This document shows, piece by piece, positions 955 through 64,000 of a stretch of 64,000 nt of DNA. The position numbers and the translations under genes were made by a program. The notes beneath the pieces are model-generated. The model was not told the DNA's origin and did no database searches. It saw only the letters and a program-made list of their open reading frames with translations. This DNA comes from a virus, in IMG/VR virus record IMGVR_UViG_3300033148_006239, positions 41,325 through 105,324 of that record; one strand, written 5' to 3'. Numbering within the stretch: the stretch's first letter is position 1; each line of letters begins with the position of its first letter.

Positions 955-1162
955 TACCTGCTTTTGTTACTGTAAAATCTAATTTAATTTTTTCAATTAT
1001 TTTTTTTGGTTTAATATAAATATCAACATAATTATCATTATAATTATCGTTATCGTTTAAATCAAATTCAAAATCATCAATAATATCTTCATCTTTTAAG
1101 TCTTGCAAAAGCAATAATATTTTAATTTGAAATATAAAAAAATCAATATTAAATTTACTCAT
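944..1162 (-). CDS. small protein resembling the C-terminus of a tail sheath
   Basis: VDIYIKPKKIIEKIKLDFTVTKAG resembles the T4 gp18-type terminal motif DIYIKP..SI.FI.L.F..T..G. Confidence 0.45.
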   Translation of the reverse strand: MSKFNIDFFIFQIKILLLLQDLKDEDIIDDFEFDLNDNDNYNDNYVDIYIKPKKIIEKIKLDFTVTKAGIDE

Positions 1163-1733
1163 TAGTGTATGCCTTATAAAGAGTATCTAATATATGTTTA
1201 TAATCATCTACACTCATTCCACCATAAGATAAAACATAATTAGGATGATTTATTGGAAAAACAATTGCTTCTCTATCATTATATTCAAATATAGATTCTT
1301 TATATAATTCTGCATCAAAAAATTTAGCAACTTGTTTACCTAAAGGAACGATTACTTTTGGTTTTAAAATCTGTATTTCTTTTAATAGAAATCTATTACC
1401 ACATTTATTAATTAATCTTTCATCAATCTTATTATTTTTTGTACTGCATTTAACAATATTTGTTATTGTACATTCATTTAAATAATTGATCATTCTTAAA
1501 AATTCTAATCCAAAACCTCCATCAAAAGCAAACGTACCATATATCCCTCTAACATTTGATGGATTCATACCAACAAATAAGAAATTATTTCCTATATGTA
1601 ATCCTTTTAATTTACCAAACCCATATCTTATATCTTCTGTATTAAATTCTTCATCGCATAAATTTTTACATCGTTTACATGTGCATAATCCGTAATAAAG
1701 TTTGTGAATCTTACTTTTCATATTTACTTTCAT
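1155..1733 (-). CDS. uracil-DNA glycosylase, family 4/5-like
   Basis: N-terminal CxxC cluster, FVGMNPS, ITNIVKC, VIVPLGK and HPNY motifs. Confidence 0.85.
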   Translation of the reverse strand: MKVNMKSKIHKLYYGLCTCKRCKNLCDEEFNTEDIRYGFGKLKGLHIGNNFLFVGMNPSNVRGIYGTFAFDGGFGLEFLRMINYLNECTITNIVKCSTKNNKIDERLINKCGNRFLLKEIQILKPKVIVPLGKQVAKFFDAELYKESIFEYNDREAIVFPINHPNYVLSYGGMSVDDYKHILDTLYKAYTNE

Positions 1734-2707
1734 AAATTACTCATTATAGTATCAAAAGTAAAAAATGGAATAATAGTATCAATCTTTTTAATTCTTTCAA
1801 TATACATATTGTTATAAGGTGTTATTTTCAAATAAACATCTACAGGCATTGATTTTGCAATCTTAATTGCATTATCTGCATCGTCTTCGACAACAAAAGA
1901 TACATTTTTTAAATCTTTAATTATTCTATGCTCTTTCTTTTCATCCCAAAAAATCATATCAATAGGTAAATTATTACTTGTTATCCATTTTAAAGTATCA
2001 GAATAGATTCTACTATATTTATGATATGGTCGTGCAGTTATTAATACAGTTATATAATCTTTTTTATATAAATATTGTAAAAATTCCTTTGCTCCAGGAA
2101 CAAAATCCATTTCGGCTTTAACACCTGATTGTCTATATCTATCTTTTAATATTAATTGTACTTCTAAATCAAGATTTAAAAAATCATTAAAATCAATTAT
2201 TTTTTCATTAATAGAAACATTATCTAACATACCATAATTAGACATAATATTCGAATATTCATTAATCCATTTAATAAAAAAATCAGGCCAATCAGCAATA
2301 ACTCCATCAATGTCAATAACTGCAATCTTTTTATTTGAATCGATATTGTTTATAAATTTTTCTTGATTATACCTTGCTTCAACAACAGTTGTTTTATTTA
2401 AAAAATTCTTATAAAAATCTTCATCATTAATTCCCCACAAATTACACAACCCAACAAGAAACTTAAATATATCAATCAATTCTTCAGAAATATTTGATCT
2501 AATTATATCGCCATCAAATTTTCTATGCATTTTAAATGGCATTTCATGTAATAATTCACCTATTTCAGAATAAAGATGTAAACAAAATTCCTTAGACCAA
2601 AAAACTAACTCTTCTTCAGTTAAATTATTTATATCAAATCCTTTATCTTTAAAAACTTGATTATTAAAGTCAAGTTGTTTTTCCCAAATTTCTTTTAATT
2701 TATTCAT
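1730..2707 (-). CDS. fusion of an all-alpha dUTPase/MazG-like NTP pyrophosphatase and a HAD 5'(3')-deoxyribonucleotidase
   Basis: N-half has SEIGELL...EELIDIFKF. C-half has DIDGVIAD, ITARP and VEDD. Likely start MNKLKE at 2707. Confidence 0.8.
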   Translation of the reverse strand: MNKLKEIWEKQLDFNNQVFKDKGFDINNLTEEELVFWSKEFCLHLYSEIGELLHEMPFKMHRKFDGDIIRSNISEELIDIFKFLVGLCNLWGINDEDFYKNFLNKTTVVEARYNQEKFINNIDSNKKIAVIDIDGVIADWPDFFIKWINEYSNIMSNYGMLDNVSINEKIIDFNDFLNLDLEVQLILKDRYRQSGVKAEMDFVPGAKEFLQYLYKKDYITVLITARPYHKYSRIYSDTLKWITSNNLPIDMIFWDEKKEHRIIKDLKNVSFVVEDDADNAIKIAKSMPVDVYLKITPYNNMYIERIKKIDTIIPFFTFDTIMSNL

Positions 2708-3665
2708 TTCCCCACCCATAAGCCATAACGTGATCAACAAAATCTTTTAACTTATCACACAATGTGTGAAACTGTATAGAATGATCCCATGACGCATATC
2801 TACCAAAACATTTTATATCACCAATATGATCTAAACAATGATTCTCTAAAAAATAGCCATACTTTAACGTACCATATTGTAATATACCACTAGACATAAA
2901 AATCTTTTTAAGTATACAGACATTATCTCGATCAATTGATTCATACGTAATTGTTTTATCTTTATTATCTGTAACTCTTATAAAAGGAATATCTTTATCA
3001 GCATAATATATATAATCATAATCGTTAAACATCAAACCATTTATTTTAACAAAATATTTGCTTTTATATTCATATTTAAAATAAGGATTTACATCAAATA
3101 ATTTACAAAAATCAGGAGCAGGAATTGTATTAATAATATATTCATGACTAGTTCTAATTGAATAATTATTATCTAAATGAATTGCAACGTGATTGTTATC
3201 ATAATAGTCAACACGTTCAATTAAACTGTTATAATATGTAGTACCTTGAGACCACAAAAATCTACAAATTGTTTCAATAAATTCTTTCTGTGAAAAATCA
3301 AAATATTCAAAATTATTACCTCCCGACGCGGTACTATCATAGTGTTTTCCATCTCGTGTAATTCTTGAATACTCTAATAAAAATTCTTTTGTTGCATAAT
3401 CTTTAATTTCATCATTGTAACAGAAACCAATGTTTGTCTTTTTAACATTTTGCTTGATATTAAATTGTCTTAAAATCTTTTCTACTTCATCAGAAACATG
3501 TAAATATCTCGGACCAAAAGCGTTCTCATATTGACCATATAATTTTCCAATTATAGTTACATTACAATTGAGATATTGTTTTAAATAATAAGCCGTTAAT
3601 AGTGCTGCAGGACCAGCACCAATAATAATTATATCATTCATAATTAATTTCTTATCAATGGGCAT
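2700..3665 (-). CDS. FAD-dependent oxidoreductase, UDP-galactopyranose mutase-like
   Basis: IIIGAGPAAL dinucleotide-binding motif, GPRYLH, INTIP and C-terminal GRYASW. Confidence 0.7.
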   Translation of the reverse strand: MPIDKKLIMNDIIIIGAGPAALLTAYYLKQYLNCNVTIIGKLYGQYENAFGPRYLHVSDEVEKILRQFNIKQNVKKTNIGFCYNDEIKDYATKEFLLEYSRITRDGKHYDSTASGGNNFEYFDFSQKEFIETICRFLWSQGTTYYNSLIERVDYYDNNHVAIHLDNNYSIRTSHEYIINTIPAPDFCKLFDVNPYFKYEYKSKYFVKINGLMFNDYDYIYYADKDIPFIRVTDNKDKTITYESIDRDNVCILKKIFMSSGILQYGTLKYGYFLENHCLDHIGDIKCFGRYASWDHSIQFHTLCDKLKDFVDHVMAYGWGNE

Positions 3666-4212
3666 AATTAATTTGCCTCATTACGTTATTAGTTTTTACA
3701 AATAAACAAGGTTGTACATCATCATAATCAATAAAATAATTTCTTATACATTTCCTAACGTTTTCAAATTCATTAGTAATTGATGAAATACATTTACTTT
3801 TAATATTTGCAATTTCAGTAGCGCTAAATCCCTTTAAATAAAGTTCAATAATTTCTTTTGCCTTTACTCTATCTAAATTATTTAACATTCTTTCAAAATC
3901 AATTGTAACATCTGCATCAGGTTCATCATAAGCAATTTGATCTTGATAATTATCTAAATTGGCGTTCTTATATTTATAATTTCTATAAGCGTTGTCCATA
4001 ATTTTAAATGAACTAAAACTCAATGTTTGATTTATAAAACCAGATAAACTACCCTTTTCTTCATCAAAGTTATTGATATACTTTAATAATAATATTGATA
4101 ATTCCTGCTTCGCGTCGTCAAACTCAACTGGAGATTTATGTGAAACTTTATATGCATATTTACATATCAGTCTATCATAATCTCTAAATACTTGGTTAAT
4201 GTCAATAATCAT
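3655..4212 (-). CDS. sigma70-family (ECF-like) RNA polymerase sigma factor
   Basis: Region 2 (DDAKQE...FDEEKGSLSGF) and region 4 HTH (GFSATEIA); AGGAG SD. Confidence 0.8.
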   Translation of the reverse strand: MIIDINQVFRDYDRLICKYAYKVSHKSPVEFDDAKQELSILLLKYINNFDEEKGSLSGFINQTLSFSSFKIMDNAYRNYKYKNANLDNYQDQIAYDEPDADVTIDFERMLNNLDRVKAKEIIELYLKGFSATEIANIKSKCISSITNEFENVRKCIRNYFIDYDDVQPCLFVKTNNVMRQINYAH

Positions 4213-4239
4213 ACAATCTCCTAATAAAATAGTAATTAG

Positions 4240-4268
4240 ATATTACTACTTTTTTTAAAGTTTGTAAA
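4240..4268 (-). promoter_or_regulatory. sigma70-like promoter of the sigma-factor operon
   Basis: TTTACA-17 bp-TAATAT on the minus strand in the intergenic gap. Confidence 0.5.
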
Positions 4269-4283
4269 ATCTTTTTAAAAAAA

Positions 4284-5420
4284 TTAAATATCAATACCAG
4301 TTTCAAGTTTCACAAATTCAACTTCTGATTTTTTTTCAAGTTTTTTATGATCTCTCTTAATTGAATTAACTAATTTAATCATTGCTTTACTCTTCTTTAA
4401 TCCTGCACAAATCATATACCCAGTAATTTTATCGACATTACTAGAATAGAAATAACTAACATACGAATTTGGAGTTCGAGTCATCACTTCAATTCTTTTA
4501 GAAATTAATTCTGCTTTTGTATTCATTGTATGTTTATCACTTCCCTTAGGTAAGACAATTGCCAATATATAATTCGTTGTTGTATTTATATCAAATGATC
4601 CATAATACATTGATTCTGTATTTAATTTACGTATAAACTCATCATCAATACCTTCATCCAATTGAAAATATCTGAAATCAACAAACCCAGAATTTTTATT
4701 ATAAAGTACCCTTTTTAAATCAGACATATCTATATTCGCATTATTACCACTTAAAAAGTCATAATTTGATTTAAATGTAAAATCATAAAACATTTTTAAA
4801 GGATTAATAATGTGATAATTAATTCTATCATAATGTGTTTTCTTCATTTTAAATCTATCATATAGTAATTGATTATCCGCAAGAATAACATTGACATAAT
4901 CAATATCTTTCAAAAAGATATTTTCAATAAACCAATTAATTAATTTTATTGTATTGTTTTTTCTCTTAATACCTTCATTCTTTTTTGGAGTTGAAATAAT
5001 TACTAATATTTTTTTATTTAATTCAACCAATAGCTCAACAATAACTCTTGTAATTCCATTTCCACTACCCCCACCACCTGATGTATAAATAATTATATAT
5101 TCATCATCATCAACAATTCTTGGACCGCATATTTCTCCATCGACATCTTCATATTTTTCAAATAAAAATTTATTTATTTTATCAATCTTATTTCTAGCTA
5201 TCATTTCACCTTTATCAGGATCATTTCCAGTTCCATCTACACCTAAAAGCATAACATCTTCAATACTAAATAATTTGATATTATCAACTGCAGTATTAGA
5301 TACAACAGTTTTTGTATTTTTAAAAAATTTACTATGTTGCTTTGCAAGCATAGTCCCACATTGACCATTACCAAATATTTTATCACTTATGGTTAAATCT
5401 AAAAACTGTTCCATTTCCAT
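4284..5420 (-). CDS. tubulin/FtsZ-superfamily GTPase (TubZ/PhuZ-like)
   Basis: GNGQCG (T1), DGTGNDPDKG (T3), SGGGGSGNG (signature loop), DNQLL and DMSDL (T7). Confidence 0.85.
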   Translation of the reverse strand: MEMEQFLDLTISDKIFGNGQCGTMLAKQHSKFFKNTKTVVSNTAVDNIKLFSIEDVMLLGVDGTGNDPDKGEMIARNKIDKINKFLFEKYEDVDGEICGPRIVDDDEYIIIYTSGGGGSGNGITRVIVELLVELNKKILVIISTPKKNEGIKRKNNTIKLINWFIENIFLKDIDYVNVILADNQLLYDRFKMKKTHYDRINYHIINPLKMFYDFTFKSNYDFLSGNNANIDMSDLKRVLYNKNSGFVDFRYFQLDEGIDDEFIRKLNTESMYYGSFDINTTTNYILAIVLPKGSDKHTMNTKAELISKRIEVMTRTPNSYVSYFYSSNVDKITGYMICAGLKKSKAMIKLVNSIKRDHKKLEKKSEVEFVKLETGIDI

Positions 5421-5421
5421 A

Positions 5422-5727
5422 TCAATTACCCATTTTTTGAATTTCTTTTAGCGATTCAAAGACACTTTTAAATCTTTCATCGTTTTCAATTAAAAGCTCA
5501 AACATTTCATCTTCATATTGAGTCATCAAGTCGTTAACACTCTTATAGACTTCATTAAAAGTTTTAATTCTTGATAGATATCTAATATCTTGAGATTTCA
5601 TTGGATCATTATTTTGACTAGGTTCAACATGACTTTTAAAATATAAAAAATCATTAATCATTGACAAATAATTAACTATATTTATTTTCAATATCAAATT
5701 TTGAGTATCCATAGTATTATCCAACAT
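5422..5727 (-). CDS. hypothetical protein upstream of the tubulin gene
   Basis: 101-aa helical ORF tightly packed between primase and tubulin. Confidence 0.6.
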   Translation of the reverse strand: MLDNTMDTQNLILKINIVNYLSMINDFLYFKSHVEPSQNNDPMKSQDIRYLSRIKTFNEVYKSVNDLMTQYEDEMFELLIENDERFKSVFESLKEIQKMGN

Positions 5728-6655
5728 CCTTTAGTTTAATTTGTAAATCTTCATAACTTAATTCATCTGGATCACAATCTATTTTAATCTTCTTTACAAA
5801 GAAATAATTACTAAGTTTTGAATAAATTTGACACAAATTTTTATATTTAAACTCATCTTCATAAACATCACCATCAAACATTATATAAATATTATCAATA
5901 TCTAATTTAGTCAATTTATCAAATTGAATAGAAGACATAATTATACCTAATAATGCGATTGCATTATAACCATATTGTTGTAAATAAATAGCATCAAATT
6001 CACCTTCAACAATAACAATATAATCTGTTATCTCTTCTATATTGTTTAATCCAAATAACGCATGTTTAGAATCACTATCTTTTAATTTTATTGCTTTGGG
6101 TTTTCTACCGTAAATAGATCTAGCATCATATGATATTAATCTATTTTTTTCATCATAGATGGGAATAATTATTCTATTTGATAAAACACCTTTATCACAA
6201 CATTTAATATTAAAAATATCAATATACTCTTCGATTATTCCTCTATCGATTAAATAATCTTTATACTTATCATACGGTTCTTTAAATTTTTCTAAAATTA
6301 ATTCATCGTAAATCTTAACATATTCATAATTATTAAACTTTTTATTATATAAATCAATAATATCATCTAGCTTAATCTCATCAATATATTGAGATCTTAA
6401 TTTATCAAGTACTGTATAAATACTGCATTCATCTAAATAAGATAATAATTTTATTAAATTACCATTTTCACCACACGACCAGCATTGAAATAATCCTCTT
6501 TTATAAGAAAAATCAATTCTAATTCCAAATGAAGGATTTGATTCACCATGATATGGACAACAAATCATCAAATTCTGATTAGATACTTTTCCCTCATATC
6601 CTCGTTGTGAAAGTTCATTAATAATATCAATATTTCTTAAATCAATATTCATCAA
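5717..6655 (-). CDS. DNA primase (CHC2 zinc finger plus TOPRIM)
   Basis: CCPYHGESNPSF...CWSCG, RIIIPI, VEGEFDA and FDGD. Confidence 0.93.
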   Translation of the reverse strand: MMNIDLRNIDIINELSQRGYEGKVSNQNLMICCPYHGESNPSFGIRIDFSYKRGLFQCWSCGENGNLIKLLSYLDECSIYTVLDKLRSQYIDEIKLDDIIDLYNKKFNNYEYVKIYDELILEKFKEPYDKYKDYLIDRGIIEEYIDIFNIKCCDKGVLSNRIIIPIYDEKNRLISYDARSIYGRKPKAIKLKDSDSKHALFGLNNIEEITDYIVIVEGEFDAIYLQQYGYNAIALLGIIMSSIQFDKLTKLDIDNIYIMFDGDVYEDEFKYKNLCQIYSKLSNYFFVKKIKIDCDPDELSYEDLQIKLKDVG

Positions 6656-6658
6656 TAA

Positions 6659-6850
6659 TTATTTTTTAACTAATTCATTATTTATATTTTTTAAAATATT
6701 TGCTAAAAAGCCAGGATGAGATTGATCATATTCATGCAATATATTTAGTGTTCTATCAATTTCATAGCAACATTTAGCGCAAATATCTTTAGTTATATTA
6801 AACTGATGTTCAAACATATCACCACATCTTTTACATTTAATTTTATCCAT
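6659..6850 (-). CDS. small zinc-finger protein
   Basis: CKRCG...CAKC. Confidence 0.6.
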   Translation of the reverse strand: MDKIKCKRCGDMFEHQFNITKDICAKCCYEIDRTLNILHEYDQSHPGFLANILKNINNELVKK

Positions 6851-6887
6851 ATTACTTATCTATAATATATCCTAATAATTATTCAAA

Positions 6888-7106
6888 CTAATCAATTGAA
6901 CGATTATTCCATTGTTCAACTAACTCACTTTTAGCTTCTTTATGAGTAGTCGCATTAATTGGATTATAAATTAACGTCGCGTTACAATCCAAACACTCAA
7001 TCCAATATTTATAATATAATTTATCACCACTATGCATCGCATTTCTTCTTATTTTTAAATTCATACTCTTACAAAGAATGTTTGGACATGGCTGTAATTC
7101 TTTCAT
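6888..7106 (-). CDS. Lar-like restriction-alleviation zinc-ribbon protein
   Basis: MKELQPCP..C...CLDC...A....WNNR pattern of the Lar family; GAGG SD. Confidence 0.65.
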   Translation of the reverse strand: MKELQPCPNILCKSMNLKIRRNAMHSGDKLYYKYWIECLDCNATLIYNPINATTHKEAKSELVEQWNNRSID

Positions 7107-7134
7107 TCTATACCTCTATATAATTTTAATACCA

Positions 7135-7286
7135 TACACCCGCCAGGATTACATACCCAGACTACATCTCACGGTAAATGCAGACTGCCGCTCTTTTTTA
7201 AGCCTTATACCACTCCTCGGGGACCGTACCCCCATTGAAGAGACTGAAAACCGAAACTGCACATGCGTTACTTCCGCCACGGGTGC
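7135..7286 (-). ncRNA. tRNA-like structured RNA with an extended anticodon arm
   Basis: GC-rich intergenic island. Acceptor-like stem GCACCCG/CGGGTGT plus A, D-arm TG-GCG-GAAGTAA-CGC-A, T-like arm CTGGG-TATGTAAT-CCTGG. A ~70-nt hairpin sits where the anticodon loop should be. Confidence 0.6.
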
Positions 7287-7292
7287 ATTAAA

Positions 7293-7727
7293 TTATTCTT
7301 CTTGTTCAGGTAACATAATAAATATCTCATCTATCTCATTGATAATATCACCTTCATATGACATCCAATCTGCTACCTTTTTAACTAAAACACCTAATCT
7401 TTGAATATTTAATTCAAGATATTCTATTCTTGAATCAAGACCTTCAATCTGTTTATCTTGATCTTCAGCCGTAGTAAGTAAAAGTTCACTATCACCTAAT
7501 AGTGAATCATATCTTTTTTTTACTTTACTTAATTCTTTTTCATTTATAGCAATTTCATCTTTTAAAGTATTAATTAGTTTATTAGCATCATTTAATTCAA
7601 TGTTTAATTGTGCTAATTCTTCTTTACCAGAACATTGAGATGTAACACATATCAATACTCCTACAAAAAATAATATTACTATTAATAGTGTCATATCTAT
7701 AATTTTTTTTCTTGTCTTGTAATTCAT
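7293..7727 (-). CDS. membrane-anchored coiled-coil protein
   Basis: N-terminal hydrophobic helix followed by heptad-rich sequence; GGAGG SD. Confidence 0.65.
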   Translation of the reverse strand: MNYKTRKKIIDMTLLIVILFFVGVLICVTSQCSGKEELAQLNIELNDANKLINTLKDEIAINEKELSKVKKRYDSLLGDSELLLTTAEDQDKQIEGLDSRIEYLELNIQRLGVLVKKVADWMSYEGDIINEIDEIFIMLPEQEE

Positions 7728-8816
7728 TTATCCCTCCAAATGTTTGAAACTTCTAAGAAATTTTGTATATTGATCTTTTATTTTCTTTAATTCATAATAA
7801 TCTAATAACTCGAATGATCTTTTAGAATTTACATTTCTTTTAGTAACATTTACATCGACATATCTCATTTTCACGAGTTTATAATTTTTAATAATATGTT
7901 GTTTATTCTTTTTAATAATATCATCTTTACAATTGCGTATTAAATCTTTTACATTTTTATATTCTTTTGCATAATTCATAGATATTTTTTTATCAAACCC
8001 GTTAACTTTTTCTATTACATCTCCTTTTTGACCCATCAAAGAATTATAAATTAACCAACTATAATCATGTGGCTTTCTTAAAAATACATTATTATTATTC
8101 CCTTTCGGATGCATAACATGTATTTGTTTATTTACAATTTGATCAAAATCATCATCGTTGCTAATAACTAAAATTAATTCATCGTTACTTAATCTCTTAG
8201 ACAATTTCTTTGCAGCACTATAACATAAATCATCTGATTCATACCCATCTAATGCTATTGAAGTAATTCCAAAATAATTAAAATACTGATGAAGAGTTTC
8301 AATTTGAATAGACAATTGATCCTCATCAGTATATTTTGATCCATCTCTGTTAGATTTGTAATTCTTATCAATTTCCCTTCTGAAATTGAATCTAGAATCC
8401 CAACAAACAATTAAATGATCAACATTGTTTTTCATTGCTTGTGATAATATAGTATTTAAAGCTCCATGTATAATACCAGTTTTTTCACCTTTTGTTGTTT
8501 TCCATTGATTAAACGGTGGTCTTTTATATCTGAAGACTAAATTATTACCATCAAATATTATAGCCTTATATGTTTTTAATTGTTCTATATTCATATTAAA
8601 TTTCCTGCATATTTCTTTTCTAATTGATTTAACACTTTGACAACTTGTATGAGCTAAATAAATAATCTCATGTGTAATTTTATTATGTATTGCAATTGAA
8701 GGATACTTATAATGTTTAACAATTGCAATAAAATATTTTGAATCAAAATCTTCACACTTTCTAATTATATTAATTAAGCTAATACATCTTTTTGTTAAAG
8801 ACTTTTTTCTTTTCAT
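7728..8816 (-). CDS. 5'-3' exonuclease / flap endonuclease (T4 RNase H, PolI N-domain-like)
   Basis: IFDGNNL, VCWDS, YKSNR, GYESDD, SNDDDFDQ and GQKGD. Confidence 0.9.
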   Translation of the reverse strand: MKRKKSLTKRCISLINIIRKCEDFDSKYFIAIVKHYKYPSIAIHNKITHEIIYLAHTSCQSVKSIRKEICRKFNMNIEQLKTYKAIIFDGNNLVFRYKRPPFNQWKTTKGEKTGIIHGALNTILSQAMKNNVDHLIVCWDSRFNFRREIDKNYKSNRDGSKYTDEDQLSIQIETLHQYFNYFGITSIALDGYESDDLCYSAAKKLSKRLSNDELILVISNDDDFDQIVNKQIHVMHPKGNNNNVFLRKPHDYSWLIYNSLMGQKGDVIEKVNGFDKKISMNYAKEYKNVKDLIRNCKDDIIKKNKQHIIKNYKLVKMRYVDVNVTKRNVNSKRSFELLDYYELKKIKDQYTKFLRSFKHLEG

Positions 8817-8822
8817 AAAATA

Positions 8823-8848
8823 ATAACAACTTAATTAATATTTTAACA
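8823..8848 (-). promoter_or_regulatory. TGTTAA-N14-TGTTA motif
   Basis: Exact motif and spacing recur at five sites upstream of genes. Confidence 0.6.
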
Positions 8849-8855
8849 TTAAAAA

Positions 8856-10232
8856 TTATAAATCATCTAAACTTTCTATCTGAACTATTTCATCGTTAAT
8901 TAACATAATATCAAATTGTGGCCTAAGTAAAATTGGTTTAAATCTTTCTCCATCTCTTGTTTTAATCAATTGTAATTGCATTGTTCCTTCTAGTTTATTA
9001 TCTTTTGTTTGTTTTAGTCCATAAACAATAGAAGAATTTTCAACTGTCCCTCTTGAATATTTTATATGTTGTGTATCTAAAAACTCAACCTTTTTTGATT
9101 CATCGGTCAATTGACAAGGCGTTATTACAGGTATACCTTTCCCATTTAAATTACCAGATAACTTTCTTAATCCCCATGATATATCAGCTTGAGCCAATGC
9201 ATCTCTTGACGATGCTTTATTATCGTCACCTGCATACATTAAATTTAAATAGTCAACAATTATTTCGTCTGCTTCTTCGTTATATTCATCTTGTATTTCA
9301 TAAATTAAATTTTCAATATTATCTACGGTACAATCATTTGTTAAATGAACAATTTCTAACCAATTCTTTTGAGTCTCTTTTAATAATTTAATTGACTTTT
9401 TCCATTTATCAAAATCATTTTGTATAAAATCCCCTAGTCTAAACTTTGTATATTGTATACCTGTTAATCTTGATTCAATTCTAAATTGAACTTGATGTTT
9501 TCTCATTTCTAATGAAAATAGAATTACATTTTTACCAGCAAGATAAGCATTTGCTGCTAAATTTTCAACAAAAATACTTTTTCCTATATTTGTCTCACCT
9601 CCAATTAAAATTAATTCATCTGCCATAAATCCACCTGTAATATTGTCCAATTTAGTAATTCCAGATGGTATTCCAATACAACCTTCACCGGATTCATATT
9701 TTTCTTTTCTTTCTTTTACAACTGCAACTCTTTCTTTATAGTCTTTTAAAAACTCACCCCTTGAATTGTCTCTAGATTCTGATATATCAATTCTTGATGC
9801 TTCACTTAATATTTTTTTTGCATTATCATTATCAAAAGATCCATCTTCGTCTACTGAATTTATTACTAATTTAACTTTATTAAAAATTTCTCTTGATTCA
9901 CATAATTTTTTAAGAACATTAAGTAATTCATTTATTGAATTATCATCATGTTTTTCTAAATCTACATTATAAACTTTTTCAACAAACTTAGAATAATTTT
10001 TAAATTTATTTCCTACTTTATTCTTAACTAAAATAGTAAATGATTCTTTATCATAATGAATATTTTTCTTTTGTACTAAAGAGAGAAATGATCTAAAAGG
10101 TGATATTGTAAAATAATTCTTCTTTAAATGTTTCTTGAAAATATTATTTTTTCTCAAAACATAAGCGATTATTATTTTTTCAGCAGATATATTTCTAAAA
10201 TGTGATTCTTCGGCTTTTTCTTCTATATTCAT
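8856..10232 (-). CDS. DnaB-like replicative helicase
   Basis: GIPSG...LD, GGETNIGKS Walker A, FSLEM, IIVDYLNLM, QL and KTRDGE. Confidence 0.93.
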   Translation of the reverse strand: MNIEEKAEESHFRNISAEKIIIAYVLRKNNIFKKHLKKNYFTISPFRSFLSLVQKKNIHYDKESFTILVKNKVGNKFKNYSKFVEKVYNVDLEKHDDNSINELLNVLKKLCESREIFNKVKLVINSVDEDGSFDNDNAKKILSEASRIDISESRDNSRGEFLKDYKERVAVVKERKEKYESGEGCIGIPSGITKLDNITGGFMADELILIGGETNIGKSIFVENLAANAYLAGKNVILFSLEMRKHQVQFRIESRLTGIQYTKFRLGDFIQNDFDKWKKSIKLLKETQKNWLEIVHLTNDCTVDNIENLIYEIQDEYNEEADEIIVDYLNLMYAGDDNKASSRDALAQADISWGLRKLSGNLNGKGIPVITPCQLTDESKKVEFLDTQHIKYSRGTVENSSIVYGLKQTKDNKLEGTMQLQLIKTRDGERFKPILLRPQFDIMLINDEIVQIESLDDL

Positions 10233-10462
10233 TAAAAATTTCTTTCATAATATTTTTTAGATTCTTCATCGCCAGGATAAAATTTTTCTTTAAAATATGA
10301 ATCACTACAAAATTCTATAAAACCATCACTATGGATAACAATCCAATCACCTAGTTCTTTAATTGAATATGTACCATCTTGCATAGTGCAAATAGTTGTA
10401 GGTTGTTTTATTATTTTAAAAGCATCGTAAATTTTTACATCTCTTTTTTTAAATTTAGCCAT
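10232..10462 (-). CDS. conserved small phage protein
   Basis: G...GDWIV....G.IEFC.D.YFKEKF resembles a common phage family (GD.II...GE.YPC...F..TY). Confidence 0.6.
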   Translation of the reverse strand: MAKFKKRDVKIYDAFKIIKQPTTICTMQDGTYSIKELGDWIVIHSDGFIEFCSDSYFKEKFYPGDEESKKYYERNF

Positions 10463-10482
10463 TGATTTCTCCTTATAACAAA

Positions 10483-10692
10483 CTATATACTTTGATAATC
10501 AGATTTTTGTATAGTTTTTATAGAAATTTCATAATTAATATTTAATACTACACCACAATGTATACAACAACAATCAAACCAACCATAAGGATTTTTTGTT
10601 TTATATTCACGAAAAATTATATCATAGTCAAAAATTTCATCTGCTTCTTTTAAATCAAATTCTTTATTGCATTCAAAACATTTAATTTTCAT
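10483..10692 (-). CDS. small zinc-finger protein
   Basis: CFEC...CIHCG. Confidence 0.6.
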   Translation of the reverse strand: MKIKCFECNKEFDLKEADEIFDYDIIFREYKTKNPYGWFDCCCIHCGVVLNINYEISIKTIQKSDYQSI

Positions 10693-10703
10693 TATTTTAT
10701 CCT

Positions 10704-11477
10704 TTACTCATATAATGTTTGATAATATTTATGATATATTGAAGCATATTTTATTATATGATTACTTTTCATATAATCATCTATTTGAACTTCTTCATTC
10801 TTATGAGATAATGATTCATCACCATGATCAATCTCTTTCAAATTTCTATTCATAATAGATACAATTGAAAAATCACCAAATATATCTTCACCTGTTTGCA
10901 TATCACTATTAGAACATACAAATATAGGACAATTATTCATAAATTTATTTCTTAAAAATGTTTCAACTTCTCTTAAAACAAAATCACTACCTTTTTTAAT
11001 ATAAACTTTATCAAATTCATCTACTAATAATACGTCTGCATTTTTTATCATATATAAATACATAGCAGTACTATCATCTGGTTCATTAGACATTTCATTG
11101 TATAATGCATTTACATAATTACTCAATAAAAAATAAACTACCTTTTTACCTCTCGTCATAAATCTTTTGCCTATTTCACACAATGTAGTTGTTTTACCTA
11201 CCGAATAATCACCATAAATAAAAAATCCTCTGCCATTTATGTAATTCTCTTCAAAATTACTAAAATATTTCTTTATTTCATCTTTTAAAACTAAATCATA
11301 ATTTACATGCCAAAATTCTTTAGGTATCTTACTTTTATATAATTCTTTTAACCATCTAAACGCCTGCATACAATCACAATCATCTTTCTTATAAAATCCT
11401 AATCCTTTACATTGTTTATGATTATCTACTATTTTTGTCTTTAAAAACTTTAAATAATCAAGATCTTTTTTTGTCAT
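10704..11477 (-). CDS. DnaC/IstB-like AAA+ helicase loader
   Basis: N-terminal C..C.G.G...CDC zinc site, GDYSVGKT Walker A, LLVDE Walker B, CSN. Confidence 0.85.
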   Translation of the reverse strand: MTKKDLDYLKFLKTKIVDNHKQCKGLGFYKKDDCDCMQAFRWLKELYKSKIPKEFWHVNYDLVLKDEIKKYFSNFEENYINGRGFFIYGDYSVGKTTTLCEIGKRFMTRGKKVVYFLLSNYVNALYNEMSNEPDDSTAMYLYMIKNADVLLVDEFDKVYIKKGSDFVLREVETFLRNKFMNNCPIFVCSNSDMQTGEDIFGDFSIVSIMNRNLKEIDHGDESLSHKNEEVQIDDYMKSNHIIKYASIYHKYYQTLYE

Positions 11478-52048: not shown

Positions 52049-52231
52049 TTATTCCTTTATAATAAATACACTATTTCCTTGTTTTCCTGATTTCATATGA
52101 CTTTTTGATGGATCACCTGATTTAAATCTCTTCCTCTTCTTCAATAGTTCATCTCTTTCTTCGTCTTTAATCTCTTTCAATATTTTCATATTACCCTCCA
52201 ATAAGCTGAACTGAACTTGTTTTACTTTCAT
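52049..52231 (-). CDS. small hypothetical protein
   Basis: Basic ORF between TerL and portal; GGAGG precedes an internal ATG. Confidence 0.45.
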   Translation of the reverse strand: MKVKQVQFSLLEGNMKILKEIKDEERDELLKKRKRFKSGDPSKSHMKSGKQGNSVFIIKE

Positions 52232-53771
52232 TTTTTCTCATTTCATAAGCTCTTAATTCAGCACATATATATCTCAATGAATCAACGGCGTGATCATCAC
52301 ATGAAGGATCAGGAAACTCTGAATTAGCAATAGAATTAGAACCTTCAAGATCTTGACATTCTCTAATTGTATTTGTGCAATGTTCTAAAACAATTAAATT
52401 TGGTATATCTAATCCAGGATTCATCTCTAAAAATTGTCTCACTGAATCATATCCAAATTCTCTATCGTTTATTGCACCAACAAGATTTATAGAATCATCT
52501 CTGTCTTTTATTTCTTTCATATATGTAGGACCAGATGGATCACCAACAACAACATCAAATCTATCATTTCTCCAATTATGCCTGTCTTCTTCTTGTAAAT
52601 ATTCAAATTTACCAAGGAACGATTTAGCGATATCTGATGCCTTTAAATATTTTCTATAAAATTCTCTATATATAACCAATGTTCCTTGTGGAGATAATGC
52701 ACCACCTAAAAATACAGCAGGATCTCTATATCCAAAGTCTAATCCACTAATCTTTAACCAATCACTTGGTATTAATTCAGTCAAAAGATCGTTTAAAGGT
52801 TTATTTGCGTCATATAATATTCCATGAAACTCTGCAAATTTCTCTATTGACCATATATGACAATCTTTAAATTCTAAGAATTGACCCTCAGAGATAGGTG
52901 TCTTACATTCCCATTGATTATCCCATGTCTTCTGATCTAATATTGCAGCTTTTTCAATTAAATCATCGATGCTATAATACCCATCACACCCTTTAGCTCT
53001 TCCTTGACATTTCTCAATCAATGGACATACTTCACATTTTCTACCAACACACTTTTCTAAGACTTCGAAAATTCCCCATTTATAAACTTTAATTCCAAGA
53101 CGTTTTGCTTCTTTATAGACTGTGTTTACTACTCCATTACTTTTCTTTCGTGTAGATAGTAATCTATCTTGTGCTTTATATCTATTATCGGACTTTGTCA
53201 TTGAAAAAGCTTCTTGAAGTAATTCCCAAGACATTAACTCAATCTCATCTGCATTGTTTTTATGAGGATGAGGACCATTATATCCTTCAGGAGATGCAGT
53301 AATAATTCTAATAGATGCACCATTTTTCATTTTTACAAGATACGGAACTCTTCTTGAAAATTCTATTTGCTCATTTATCAGTTTTATCTTTTTAAATTGT
53401 TCTAAATACTTGAACATTAAATTTGCTTGTTCAACAACTGCTCCGCTACTTGTTATTTCTATTTCAGGCTTAAAAAGTAAATCTAAAATATTAACAATTG
53501 ACAAATTTCTTGTTTTACCACCATTTCTATTAGCAATTGCTAAGCACTTAGAATACCTTTGAAAGAATGAATCAGAAACAAAATCAAATGGTACATCGTG
53601 ACCATCTATAATAACTTTATTTGGAACTTTAAAATTTAAAAAGATTCTTATAAAGTCAGCTAAGTCTTCATCAGTAGTTATACCATTAGTAATATAATAC
53701 TGAAATAGATCTTTTCTATTATCTTCAAGTGAAGACAATACTGTATTTGCAGTTGTTTTATCAATTTCCAT
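52191..53771 (-). CDS. terminase large subunit
   Basis: ANRNGGKT Walker A, ADE Walker B, LST motif, GLDFGYRDP and DHAVDSLRY nuclease motifs. Confidence 0.95.
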   Translation of the reverse strand: MEIDKTTANTVLSSLEDNRKDLFQYYITNGITTDEDLADFIRIFLNFKVPNKVIIDGHDVPFDFVSDSFFQRYSKCLAIANRNGGKTRNLSIVNILDLLFKPEIEITSSGAVVEQANLMFKYLEQFKKIKLINEQIEFSRRVPYLVKMKNGASIRIITASPEGYNGPHPHKNNADEIELMSWELLQEAFSMTKSDNRYKAQDRLLSTRKKSNGVVNTVYKEAKRLGIKVYKWGIFEVLEKCVGRKCEVCPLIEKCQGRAKGCDGYYSIDDLIEKAAILDQKTWDNQWECKTPISEGQFLEFKDCHIWSIEKFAEFHGILYDANKPLNDLLTELIPSDWLKISGLDFGYRDPAVFLGGALSPQGTLVIYREFYRKYLKASDIAKSFLGKFEYLQEEDRHNWRNDRFDVVVGDPSGPTYMKEIKDRDDSINLVGAINDREFGYDSVRQFLEMNPGLDIPNLIVLEHCTNTIRECQDLEGSNSIANSEFPDPSCDDHAVDSLRYICAELRAYEMRKNESKTSSVQLIGG

Positions 53772-61764: not shown

Positions 61765-61848
61765 CGTTTTTATTTGCACTTCTCAATTTTTTATAATTTT
61801 ACATATTATAAAGGAAGAAAATGTTTTCATTTTGTCGAGTACTACTCG

Positions 61849-61993
61849 ATATTTCAACAATTTTAAAAATGAACGGGAGGTTCGGTTGTCTTGATTATGT
61901 TAAGATTTTCAAATGTGTCATACTTAATATTTCAACAATTTTAAAAATGAACGTGTGAAACTTAATATTTCAGCAATTTTAAAAATGAACGTG
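61849..61993. repeat. three 27-bp direct repeats (iteron-like)
   Basis: atatttca(a/g)caattttaaaaatgaacg at 61849, 61927 and 61965; copies 2 and 3 extend to 34 bp. Confidence 0.9.
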
Positions 61994-62055
61994 ATATGGG
62001 GGAAGAGGGGTGGGTAAGTAATTATATAAATATATATATAACCACCATATAGGGG

Positions 62056-62701
62056 TTTTTTAAATTAAAATTTTTTAATTATATATATATTAATAATTTA
62101 TATAATATTAATTATTTAATTATTTAATTATATATATAATAATAATTTATATAAATATATAATATTATTATAATTATATTAATAATTTATAATATTAATT
62201 AAATTAATAATTTAAAATTATTTAATTATTATATATTTATATAATAATTAAATAATATAAATATAATTATATATATAATATATATTTATATAATAAATAA
62301 TTTTAAATTAATTAAATATATAATATATAATAACTTATATAATAATTAAATAATATAAATATAATTATATATATAATATATAATATATAAAAATAATTTT
62401 TATAAATATATATATATTAATAATTAAATAATAATAATATAATTTATTATATATTATATATTTATAAAAATTATTAAATATATTTATATAAATTATTAAA
62501 TAATAATAAATAATAAATAATATAATATATATTAATATAATTAATAATATAATATATATTTATATAATAATAAATATTAAATAATATAAATTATTATATA
62601 TATATAATTTATAAATATAATTAATTATATATATATAAATTATTAATAATATTATAATTATAAAATAAAAAATTATTTATTATATAATTATAATAAAAAT
62701 T
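62056..62701. other. almost pure A/T tract
   Basis: About 645 bp with a single C (62334) and no G; includes a 48-bp direct repeat at 62237 and 62335. Confidence 0.95.
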
Positions 62702-63270
62702 CCCCACAAAAAATAATTTTTAACCAACTTAATTTATATCAAACCAATAACTACTCTCAAACCTTTTTTATACCATCATCTCACAACTATTATATATTAT
62801 CTTATAATCTTAAAAAAAAATTTTTTTCATCTCTCTCTCTACATATCTTACTTATATACTCCCCATATAAAATTAATATCTACACTCTAAACATTAACAC
62901 CCCTTATATCATCTCAAACACCTCTACAATCAATCTTTCTCTACTCCCTATACTTTACCCCTACCCTATAATTAACTACTCTTAAAATCAATCCTCATCC
63001 AATCTCAAACATATTAACATATTAACAACTCTTCATATATCATCTCTATTTAAAAAAAATTTTTTTCATTTTTTATCAAAAAAATAAAATATAATATTTC
63101 TTTAATCTACACACCAACTTCTCTTATATACTCCCTATAAAAAATTAATATCTACACACCATTAACTATATCAAAACATTTAAAAACATTAATCTACACA
63201 CCAACAATTTTAAACAAAAAAAAATATATATCATATTTCTACAATATATATTTTATCCTTCTCCCACCAT
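62702..63270. repeat. G-less non-coding region with direct repeats
   Basis: cttatatactccc...attaatatctacac twice (~62851, ~63123); aaaaaaatttttttcat twice; aatctacacaccaac twice. Confidence 0.7.
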
Positions 63271-63276
63271 CCTAAT

Positions 63277-63402
63277 CTAAAATATATTTATCTTTATTTC
63301 CTCATCTCCCATTATACACTTACTTATCACAATCACTATATTTTCAAATCTTAACACTATCACTTCACACATCTCTACTTCATCAAAATAATTTTCTATC
63401 AT
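63277..63402 (-). CDS. cytosine-free small protein (41 aa)
   Basis: GGAGG SD, then MIENYFDEVEMCEVIVLRFENIVIVISKCIMGDEEIKINIF; no C in the coding strand; not in the track. Confidence 0.55.
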   Translation of the reverse strand: MIENYFDEVEMCEVIVLRFENIVIVISKCIMGDEEIKINIF

Positions 63403-63472
63403 ATTTACCTCCAATAAATATTTTAATCTACACAAACATTACTTTATTTTTCCCACCAACCCACCCCATAAA

Positions 63473-63898
63473 TTATTTATCACCTTCCTTTTCATTCATA
63501 TTTTTTAACTCTTCTTTCATCCTTACAATCTCTTTCTCTAATCTTTCTTTCCTTAACTCTCCACTTACTCCCCCCAACTCTCTTAAATAACTATTATCTA
63601 CACCTTTTTCAATATTATTTATATAATATAAATAATAATTACTACTTCTATAAACATTCCATTCTTCATTAAACAAACTTTCACACAATTCTTTCTTATC
63701 CTTCCCATCTTTCAACCCTTTAATTAAATATTCATACACATATTTAATCTTCACTTTATCCAACTTATCTTTACTCCCACTCACTCCCTTATCCTTCACA
63801 ATCACTTTTTCTTTCAATTCTTTTACTTCTTTCTCTAATTCTTTCACTACTACACTCTTTTCTAAATCACTTTTTAAAACCTTATCATTCTTTTTCAT
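63473..63898 (-). CDS. cytosine-free protein (141 aa, charged/helical)
   Basis: GGAGG-AAAAT-ATG start at 63898; no C in the coding strand; the protein lacks Ala, Pro, Thr, Gln and His. Confidence 0.8.
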   Translation of the reverse strand: MKKNDKVLKSDLEKSVVVKELEKEVKELKEKVIVKDKGVSGSKDKLDKVKIKYVYEYLIKGLKDGKDKKELCESLFNEEWNVYRSSNYYLYYINNIEKGVDNSYLRELGGVSGELRKERLEKEIVRMKEELKNMNEKEGDK

Positions 63899-63924
63899 AT
63901 TTTCCTCCAAAACATTTTAAATCC

Positions 63925-63999
63925 TCACTTTATCCCATCACACCCACAATCAAATCCTTTTTTTAACCTCCATCCATAAACATAATAAAACATATTAAA
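63925..63999 (-). CDS. possible 3' end of another cytosine-free ORF
   Basis: Open frame ...FNMFYYVYGWRLKKGFDCGCDGIK* entering from the window edge. Confidence 0.3.
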   Translation of the reverse strand, partial: FNMFYYVYGWRLKKGFDCGCDGIK

Positions 64000-64000
64000 A

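Follow-up and report, generated by a model that had tools for sequence, protein, structure and literature searches.

Which pressure leads a phage to write a gene without a single cytosine? The question is posed by a reading frame, here termed ORF141, that lies close to the right-hand end of IMG/VR virus record IMGVR_UViG_3300033148_006239. The window analyzed here is the right-hand 64,000 nucleotides of this record of 105,324 bp, and window and record finish at the same base; positions refer to the window unless they are marked as contig positions, which refer to the whole record. A sequence-only reading had described the encoded protein as restricted to fifteen amino acids and had proposed it as a candidate pre-early anti-defence or host-takeover factor that is expressed first and translated independently of several tRNAs. 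The gene and its immediate neighborhood comprise the following features:

63473..63898, minus strand: ORF141, 141 codons plus stop, no C in the coding strand.
63904..63908, minus strand: Shine-Dalgarno sequence GGAGG of ORF141, five bases ahead of the ATG, in the context GGAGGAAAATATG.
63451..63467, minus strand: G-run element GGGGTGGGTTGGTGGG, immediately 3' of the ORF141 stop codon.
63277..63402, minus strand: ORF41, 41 codons, C-free, acidic and hydrophobic.

Base counts for ORF141 are A 196, G 116, T 114 and C 0, and its product is composed of K29 E21 L15 V14 N9 D9 S9 G9 Y9 I6 R5 M3 C1 F1 W1. Both counts bear out the fifteen-residue alphabet that lacks A, P, T, Q and H, and leucine, serine and arginine are encoded by TTR, AGT and AGR only, as had been claimed. 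From stop to stop the open frame extends over 147 codons, a length never reached when the C-free strand was shuffled 2,000 times (mean 44.6, maximum 98); the analytic p is about 1e-6. Codons holding a C make up 28.9% of those in the phage's long ORFs, so that 141 C-free codons would be met by chance with a probability of about 1e-21. The periodicity of codon positions is coding-like (G1 0.37, A2 0.55). Three GGAGG sequences are present on the C-free strand of the surrounding three-letter tract and two of them precede ATGs; that of ORF41 is located at 63408-63412 with the motif GTGTAGAT 20 nt upstream. ORF141 is an intact, genuine phage gene.

When the whole phage was searched in six frames with ORF141, a sole other match was returned:

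contig 5615-6052 (L001), outside the window, plus strand: paralog of ORF141, 145 codons, in the plus arm of the genome.

The two proteins match in BLASTP with compositional correction at E 6e-5, and a full-length collinear alignment scores 103 as compared to 42 ± 7 for shuffled sequences (z 8.7, 0/2,000). Both start with MKK and have the block VYxxxxYYLYYIN in common. The paralog makes use of all four bases and of 17 amino acids; it contains 38 A, P, T, Q or H residues (26%), and 64 of its 145 codons (44%) hold a C. At seven of the 38 identical residues the paralog uses the codons TCT, CTT, TAC, ATC, AAC, GAC and CTC, while ORF141 resorts to C-free synonyms. Furthermore, the paralog is lysine-rich (K30) and features a K/P/T/A-rich N-terminus resembling the tail of histone H1. 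Its gene is flanked by a perfect hairpin upstream and a G-C hairpin terminator downstream, and the position of the latter corresponds to that of GGGGTGGGTTGGTGGG behind ORF141. The stem of the paralog terminator contains CTGTAGAT, a near-match to the motif GTGTAGAT of the tract. As the paralog is written in ordinary four-letter script, the family is not intrinsically simple and ORF141 has been rewritten to suit the tract in which it resides. A third family copy was not found in the genome, homologs of the paralog outside the phage were not detected among 5.8 billion proteins, and a profile built from ORF141 and its paralog did not match any IMG/VR or JGI metagenome contigs. The comparison demonstrates that the family consists of two genes found in this phage alone and that ORF141 is the one rewritten without C.

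The absence of cytosine is not confined to the gene. ORF141 is embedded in a three-letter tract that runs to the end of the record and contains a number of further elements:

62056..64000 (1,945 nt), both strands: window part of the three-letter tract, no G on the plus strand and hence no C on the minus strand.
62056..62701 (646 bp), both strands: A/T block, pure A/T save one plus-strand C at 62334.
62878..63433, minus strand: five non-coding copies of GTGTAGAT(A)TTA, first bases at 63433, 63199, 63157, 63112 and 62885.
contig 172-224: three copies of GTGAAGAT.
62812-62827, 63052-63066 and contig 234-248: A7-8T7-9 palindromes, the only three of the genome, all in the tract.
63887..64000 (114 bp), both strands: copy of the end repeat, identical to contig 1-114.

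The tract goes on in contig 1-485, giving a joined non-redundant length of 2,316 nt with a plus-strand composition of A 945, T 937, C 434 and G 0. At its start a minus-strand hairpin terminator (contig 503-485) stops exactly at the tract boundary. The A/T block lies between GGGG at its left edge and CCCC at its right edge, and it is degenerately repetitive and strongly self-complementary. On the minus strand, 10 of the genome's 23 copies of GTGWAGAT fall in the tract and the other 13 elsewhere; in addition to the non-coding copies listed above, two further motif copies fall within ORF141. In the genes bordering the tract, C makes up 6-12% of the coding strand. Coding sequence (ORF141 and ORF41) accounts for only 552 nt of the tract, and 76% (about 1,760 nt) is non-coding. 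Because cytosine is banned just as strictly from these roughly 1,760 non-coding nucleotides, the constraint must act on DNA or RNA and not on translation. The proposed independence from tRNAs for A, P, T, Q and H and from CTN, CGN and TCN codons therefore stands as arithmetic but falls as a selected trait, since the non-coding DNA is equally C-free, and the fifteen-residue alphabet proves to be a by-product of a minus-strand ban on C across the 2.3-kb tract.

The scar of a recent one-strand C-to-T hypermutation was considered and rejected. T is not in excess (the three-letter part has A 634 and T 603), G stands at 26% versus 18% on the coding strand of the long ORFs, third-position G amounts to 27% versus 9% genome-wide, and the reading frames are intact. 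Among relatives, 80 IMG/VR loci with large terminases of 28-41% identity and up to 10 kb of flank each did not contain any base-free run of more than 132 nt. Eleven contigs possessing a 16-mer of the tract were dismissed as relatives, the matches being due to chance. Rfam did not yield a match in or beside the tract.

Several other sequence features were noted in this region. Three direct repeats of about 38 nt with the core ATATTTCAACAATTTTAAAAATGAAC are located at 61834-61987, just left of the A/T block, and at 61991-62055 a 51-nt G-rich, C-free plus-strand patch, GGGGGAAGAGGGGTGGGTAAG, plus GGGG directly precede it. The strand skew reverses across the block. A minus-strand sequence near the A/T block, CCCACCCC, is the exact complement of GGGGTGGG behind the ORF141 stop codon. 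Words of the type AAAATGA(A/C) recur beyond the opposite end of the tract, in non-coding contig 900-1030. Between the tract and the first gene of the plus arm, about 1.5 kb of normal composition (contig 486-1960, L001) are found in which no convincing ORFs were detected. This stretch may encode non-coding RNAs; a long hairpin lies at contig 1800-1918, and its sole Rfam match, to a plant miRNA family, is below threshold.

The position of the tract is best appreciated on the scale of the whole 105-kb record, where a plus and a minus gene arm diverge from it. The most relevant members of the two arms are:

contig 1980-11310, plus strand: short plus arm with small unknown genes and a DNA ligase.
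1155-1733, minus strand: UDG-superfamily enzyme.
1730-2740, minus strand: dUTPase-like/5'-nucleotidase fusion.
2700-3665, minus strand: flavoprotein.
3655-4212, minus strand: protein with sigma-70 region 2.
4284-5420, minus strand: tubulin/FtsZ-like GTPase.
52191-53771, minus strand: large terminase (TerL).

The long minus arm begins past the A/T block with about 25 small genes, followed by genes for small and large terminase, a head protease and virion structural and tail proteins including the tape measure. Further on, it encodes the sigma-like factor, the tubulin-like protein, the UDG-family enzyme, the dUTPase-like/nucleotidase fusion and a thymidylate-kinase-like enzyme, and it terminates with genes for DnaB, primase, DnaE, recombinase, SbcCD and ribonucleotide reductase. 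The large subunit of the latter (L002:715-5214, minus strand, 1,499 residues) carries two HNH-endonuclease-like stretches that look like intein or homing-endonuclease insertions. The notion that ORF141 lies upstream of all other genes thus holds inside the window but not in the complete record, where the second arm diverges on the plus strand. The first 114 bases of the record recur as its last 114, leaving a non-redundant genome of 105,210 bp, and IMG/VR classes the record as bearing direct terminal repeats, with a CheckV completeness of 100%. The repeat contains the Shine-Dalgarno sequence and the first four codons of ORF141 plus 102 bp upstream. Its length does not correspond to a k-mer commonly used by assemblers, so that the repeat may be a genuine terminal one, in which case ORF141 would sit 102 bp from the physical end of the genome. 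The best relative of TerL has 48% identity and is encoded on a 2.5-kb contig, and the best match among GenBank phages reaches about 29% identity over less than half of the length; the lineage, with all its TerL kin distant, is essentially without description.

What kind of protein, then, has been written in this restricted script? The earlier statement that it belongs to no recognizable family is confirmed. ORF141 retrieves only itself from 5.8 billion clustered proteins and, in a full HMMER search, from 1.84 billion representatives. Likewise, tblastn against 50,697 GenBank phage records, Pfam, PHROGs and the ESM Atlas did not provide a match or homolog. The small terminase was rejected as a possible identity on the basis of position, with a 165-codon ORF directly abutting TerL. 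AF2 models of ORF141 attain a pLDDT of 55 for the protein alone and 52 with the pair, and the wing region stays below 50. At this low pLDDT, both models contain long terminal helices (about 3-33 and 112-139) and three helices in between (42-63, 68-76 and 78-97), whose placement would suit a winged helix. Foldseek did not find a PDB match at E <= 0.001, and a wide VIA-align search gave generic helical matches only (Z <8).

The only PDB matches to the pair profile or to the central 79 residues are to the globular domain of yeast histone H1 (1UST, 1UHM) at E 0.037-0.14. The alignment of ORF141 with H1 spans helices I-III and the wing, and its pairwise score reaches z 7.1 (0/5,000 shuffles), although it was the database search that had singled out this pair. 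Taken by itself, the paralog shows no resemblance to H1 (z 0.9). When aligned with the winged helix of linker histones H1/H5, ORF141 shares SN(Y/F)xLY(Y/F)xNxIxKGV...G..G over about residues 55-116, and the ORF141 family has lysine-rich flanks, strongest in the paralog; unlike these histones, it is without a Pfam match and without a confident fold, and E values are as modest as 0.04-0.1. Pfam Linker_histone (PF00538) was absent from hmmscan results (E up to 10) for ORF141, its central part and the paralog, and PF00538 was likewise without a match when run against all six frames of the complete record. As this model gives no match, ORF141 is not filed as a linker-histone member, and we treat the resemblance to the H1 winged helix as borderline. 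ORF141 would then be laid out as long K/E-rich helices at both ends with an H1-like domain of about 65 residues (about 55-116) between them. With a pI of 8.86, the protein is mildly basic and is no acidic DNA mimic. It is probably a small oligomerizing DNA-binding protein of the winged-helix type.

Seven genes of the phage, namely ORF141, ORF41 and the five that open the plus arm, have the start context GGAGG(A/T)AAA(W)ATG, which has no further copy in the genome, and we infer that it ties ORF141 to the early-type class of that arm. An A/T-only promoter-like consensus, TTTATTATATTATAAAT, is present with zero to one mismatch at contig 4387, 5348, 6136 and 9731 (plus strand) and 14146 (minus strand), 8-40 nt before the ribosome sites of plus-arm genes and, at the distal end of the minus arm, of a single gene. 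Many partial copies occur in the A/T block. The consensus is missing upstream of ORF141, for which a promoter was not identified; generic scans for sigma-70 promoters and terminators are uninformative in such A/T-rich DNA.

We arrive at a reading in which ORF141 is a C-free rewrite of a probable early DNA binder and the ban on C serves the transcript, a reading that we consider about equally likely to be right or wrong as a whole. The purpose of the ban would most likely reside in the RNA, as a C-free transcript would escape loading of Rho, could not form G-C hairpin terminators and would offer no target to agents acting on C. RNA from the opposite strand (26% C, no G, no structure) would be an ideal Rho substrate. 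The tract could thus form a one-way, termination-proof transcription track, and ORF141 would have been rewritten to live there. In Bacillus subtilis, Rho terminates on stretches of more than 150 nt with an excess of C over G and T-richness, and sense strands evolve away from this composition (Dierksheide et al., 2026; PMC13323073). Judged by the criteria of the same study, the sense RNA of the tract (G 26%, C 0) has a Rho-avoiding composition, and the antisense RNA (C 26%, G 0) has just the signature of a Rho target in being C-rich, G-free, T-rich and unstructured. Its folding energy is 0 to -5.4 kcal/mol per 150 nt versus -23 ± 6 elsewhere in the genome. The minus-strand terminator at the start of the tract (contig 503-485) fits the logic of a transcription unit.

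Rho is known to need many spaced YC dinucleotides, and isolated C's should therefore be harmless. Rho avoidance alone does not explain the absolute zero of C, nor does it explain the 646-bp A/T block. The early-type genes of the plus arm, which are devoid of a G>C bias, also speak against an explanation via Rho. Moreover, the published bias, which favors G over C and purines over pyrimidines (PMC13323073), is statistical and was found in bacteria with runaway transcription, while that of the tract is absolute over 2.3 kb including non-coding DNA and the A/T block. The criteria were derived for B. subtilis, and the host of the phage may lack Rho.

It is possible, if on the whole unlikely, that the tract instead represents a replication origin with ORF141 as its initiator or a passenger. 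Transcription of the minus strand would yield a C-free, G-containing RNA that could form a very stable R-loop on the G-free template, and the displaced strand would offer no C for deamination. The A/T block could serve as the unwinding element and the GTGWAGAT copies as iterons for a winged-helix protein whose gene sits in their midst, a situation for which lambda O and plasmid Rep proteins are precedents. The arrangement agrees with this idea in several respects: GC skew is maximal along the direction of transcription and the A/T-only block adjoins, ten motif copies of the same orientation are concentrated in the tract, and clustered direct repeats next to a 646-bp A/T block are what is expected of an iteron origin. 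The phage possesses its own DnaB-like helicase, DnaA/DnaC-like ATPase, primase and DnaE and is therefore in need of an origin. It also encodes an enzyme of the UDG family, and the borderline winged-helix lead for ORF141 would suit an initiator. T4 oriF/oriG, ColE1, the T7 primary origin and lambda ori-O likewise offer promoter-proximal skewed DNA beside an A/T-rich unwinding block, or direct repeats with a small gene of the DNA-binding type among them. However, neither ORF141 nor ORF41 matches a known initiator family (Rep, O or DnaA type), the two motif copies inside ORF141, out of ten in all, may be incidental, and the paralog resides far from the tract. To our knowledge, R-loop origins are not base-free; those named above keep all bases.

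Doubtful in our view is a reading close to the original proposal, namely that the tract is the first-injected, restriction-invisible end of the genome and that ORF141 and ORF41 are pre-early anti-restriction or takeover proteins. The C-free strand would be devoid of palindromes containing G or C and would go unseen by almost all type II restriction enzymes, and the two products would be made before the remaining genome enters. By construction, sites with G and C on one strand are indeed impossible in the tract, the 114-bp repeat may be a true terminus with ORF141 reading inward from a distance of 102 bp, and the early-type ribosome-site context is held in common with genes of the plus arm. TTAA (35 versus 33 expected) and TTTAAA (6 versus 5.2) are nevertheless not avoided in the three-letter part, A/T-only palindromes are plentiful in the A/T block, and an absolute ban would be unnecessary for avoiding sites. 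The sister gene is located in the ordinary plus arm, and the same-strand genes downstream of ORF141 are small unknowns and then terminase and structural genes, which does not fit a first-expressed effector. In phage T5, first-step transfer delivers the pre-early genes A1, A2 and dmp, and T7 gene 0.3 specifies Ocr. The tract resembles these leading ends in having small inward-reading genes near a possible terminal repeat and DNA barred from most restriction sites, but it differs in that A/T-only palindromes are kept and ORF141 (pI 8.9) is not acidic and matches none of the anti-defence or pre-early proteins known. In 50,697 phage records, Pfam and PHROG, no homology to A1, A2, dmp, Ocr or ArdA was found. 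Nothing seen to date speaks for ORF141 being an anti-defence factor.

We attach similarly little weight to the idea that ORF141 is a privileged copy of a DNA binder on a C-free message, made when C-containing messages fail or perish. Such failure could be caused by Rho, a C-dependent RNase, a CTP-analogue chain terminator or shortage of CTP, of host or phage origin. ACA-less mRNAs are known to survive the mRNA interferase MazF in single-protein production, and by analogy with these messages, ORF141 would have shed a nuclease target by synonymous and conservative changes that keep the protein. The MazF system, however, is engineered and dispenses with one trinucleotide, while the tract is natural and an entire base is gone, from the spacers too. 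If the idea were true, the tract would amount to a natural "C-less cassette" and its product ORF141 to the takeover or counter-defence protein that is the first to work.

It is very improbable that the ban on C reflects a modified base in the phage DNA, such that genes read first by the unaided host polymerase avoid this base on one strand, with either a template free of modified G or a non-template strand free of modified C. A ThyX-like/flavoprotein module, together with the dUTPase-like/5'-nucleotidase fusion and the thymidylate-kinase-like and UDG-family enzymes, constitutes a pyrimidine-enzyme set that points to an unusual pyrimidine in the DNA. Yet, were C modified, the 434 C's of the tract would sit on the template strand, the opposite of what is predicted. 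Modification to 7-deazaguanine was rejected, with DpdA/TGT (PF01702) and QueC (PF06508) both missing from the 100%-complete record. Finally, we find it hardly credible that ORF141 is a frame that stands open by accident, or is in decay, within odd DNA and does not give rise to a functional protein: it folds poorly in silico and has no homolog outside the phage, but such a frame has a chance of about 1e-6 on this stop-rich strand, is equipped with a strong Shine-Dalgarno sequence and coding periodicity, and has a collinear paralog in which the aromatic block is conserved.

A description of natural cytosine-free phage genes was not found in the literature, and the phenomenon looks new; we add to it a pair of paralogs in three-letter and four-letter script and the borderline winged-helix lead for ORF141. 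With a three-letter gene and its surroundings beside a four-letter sister in one and the same genome, an experiment has already been run by nature. The pair tells us that a protein family can be recast in fifteen residues while its core motif is kept, and the tract tells us that something in the infected cell makes each C on one strand costly. Naming this pressure, be it Rho, nuclease or nucleotide attack directed at C, R-loop chemistry or restriction, would uncover a new level at which phage and host are in conflict or at which genomes operate mechanically. Once identified, the pressure on C could furthermore be turned into a design rule for synthetic biology, that is, for messages that are proof against termination or attack.
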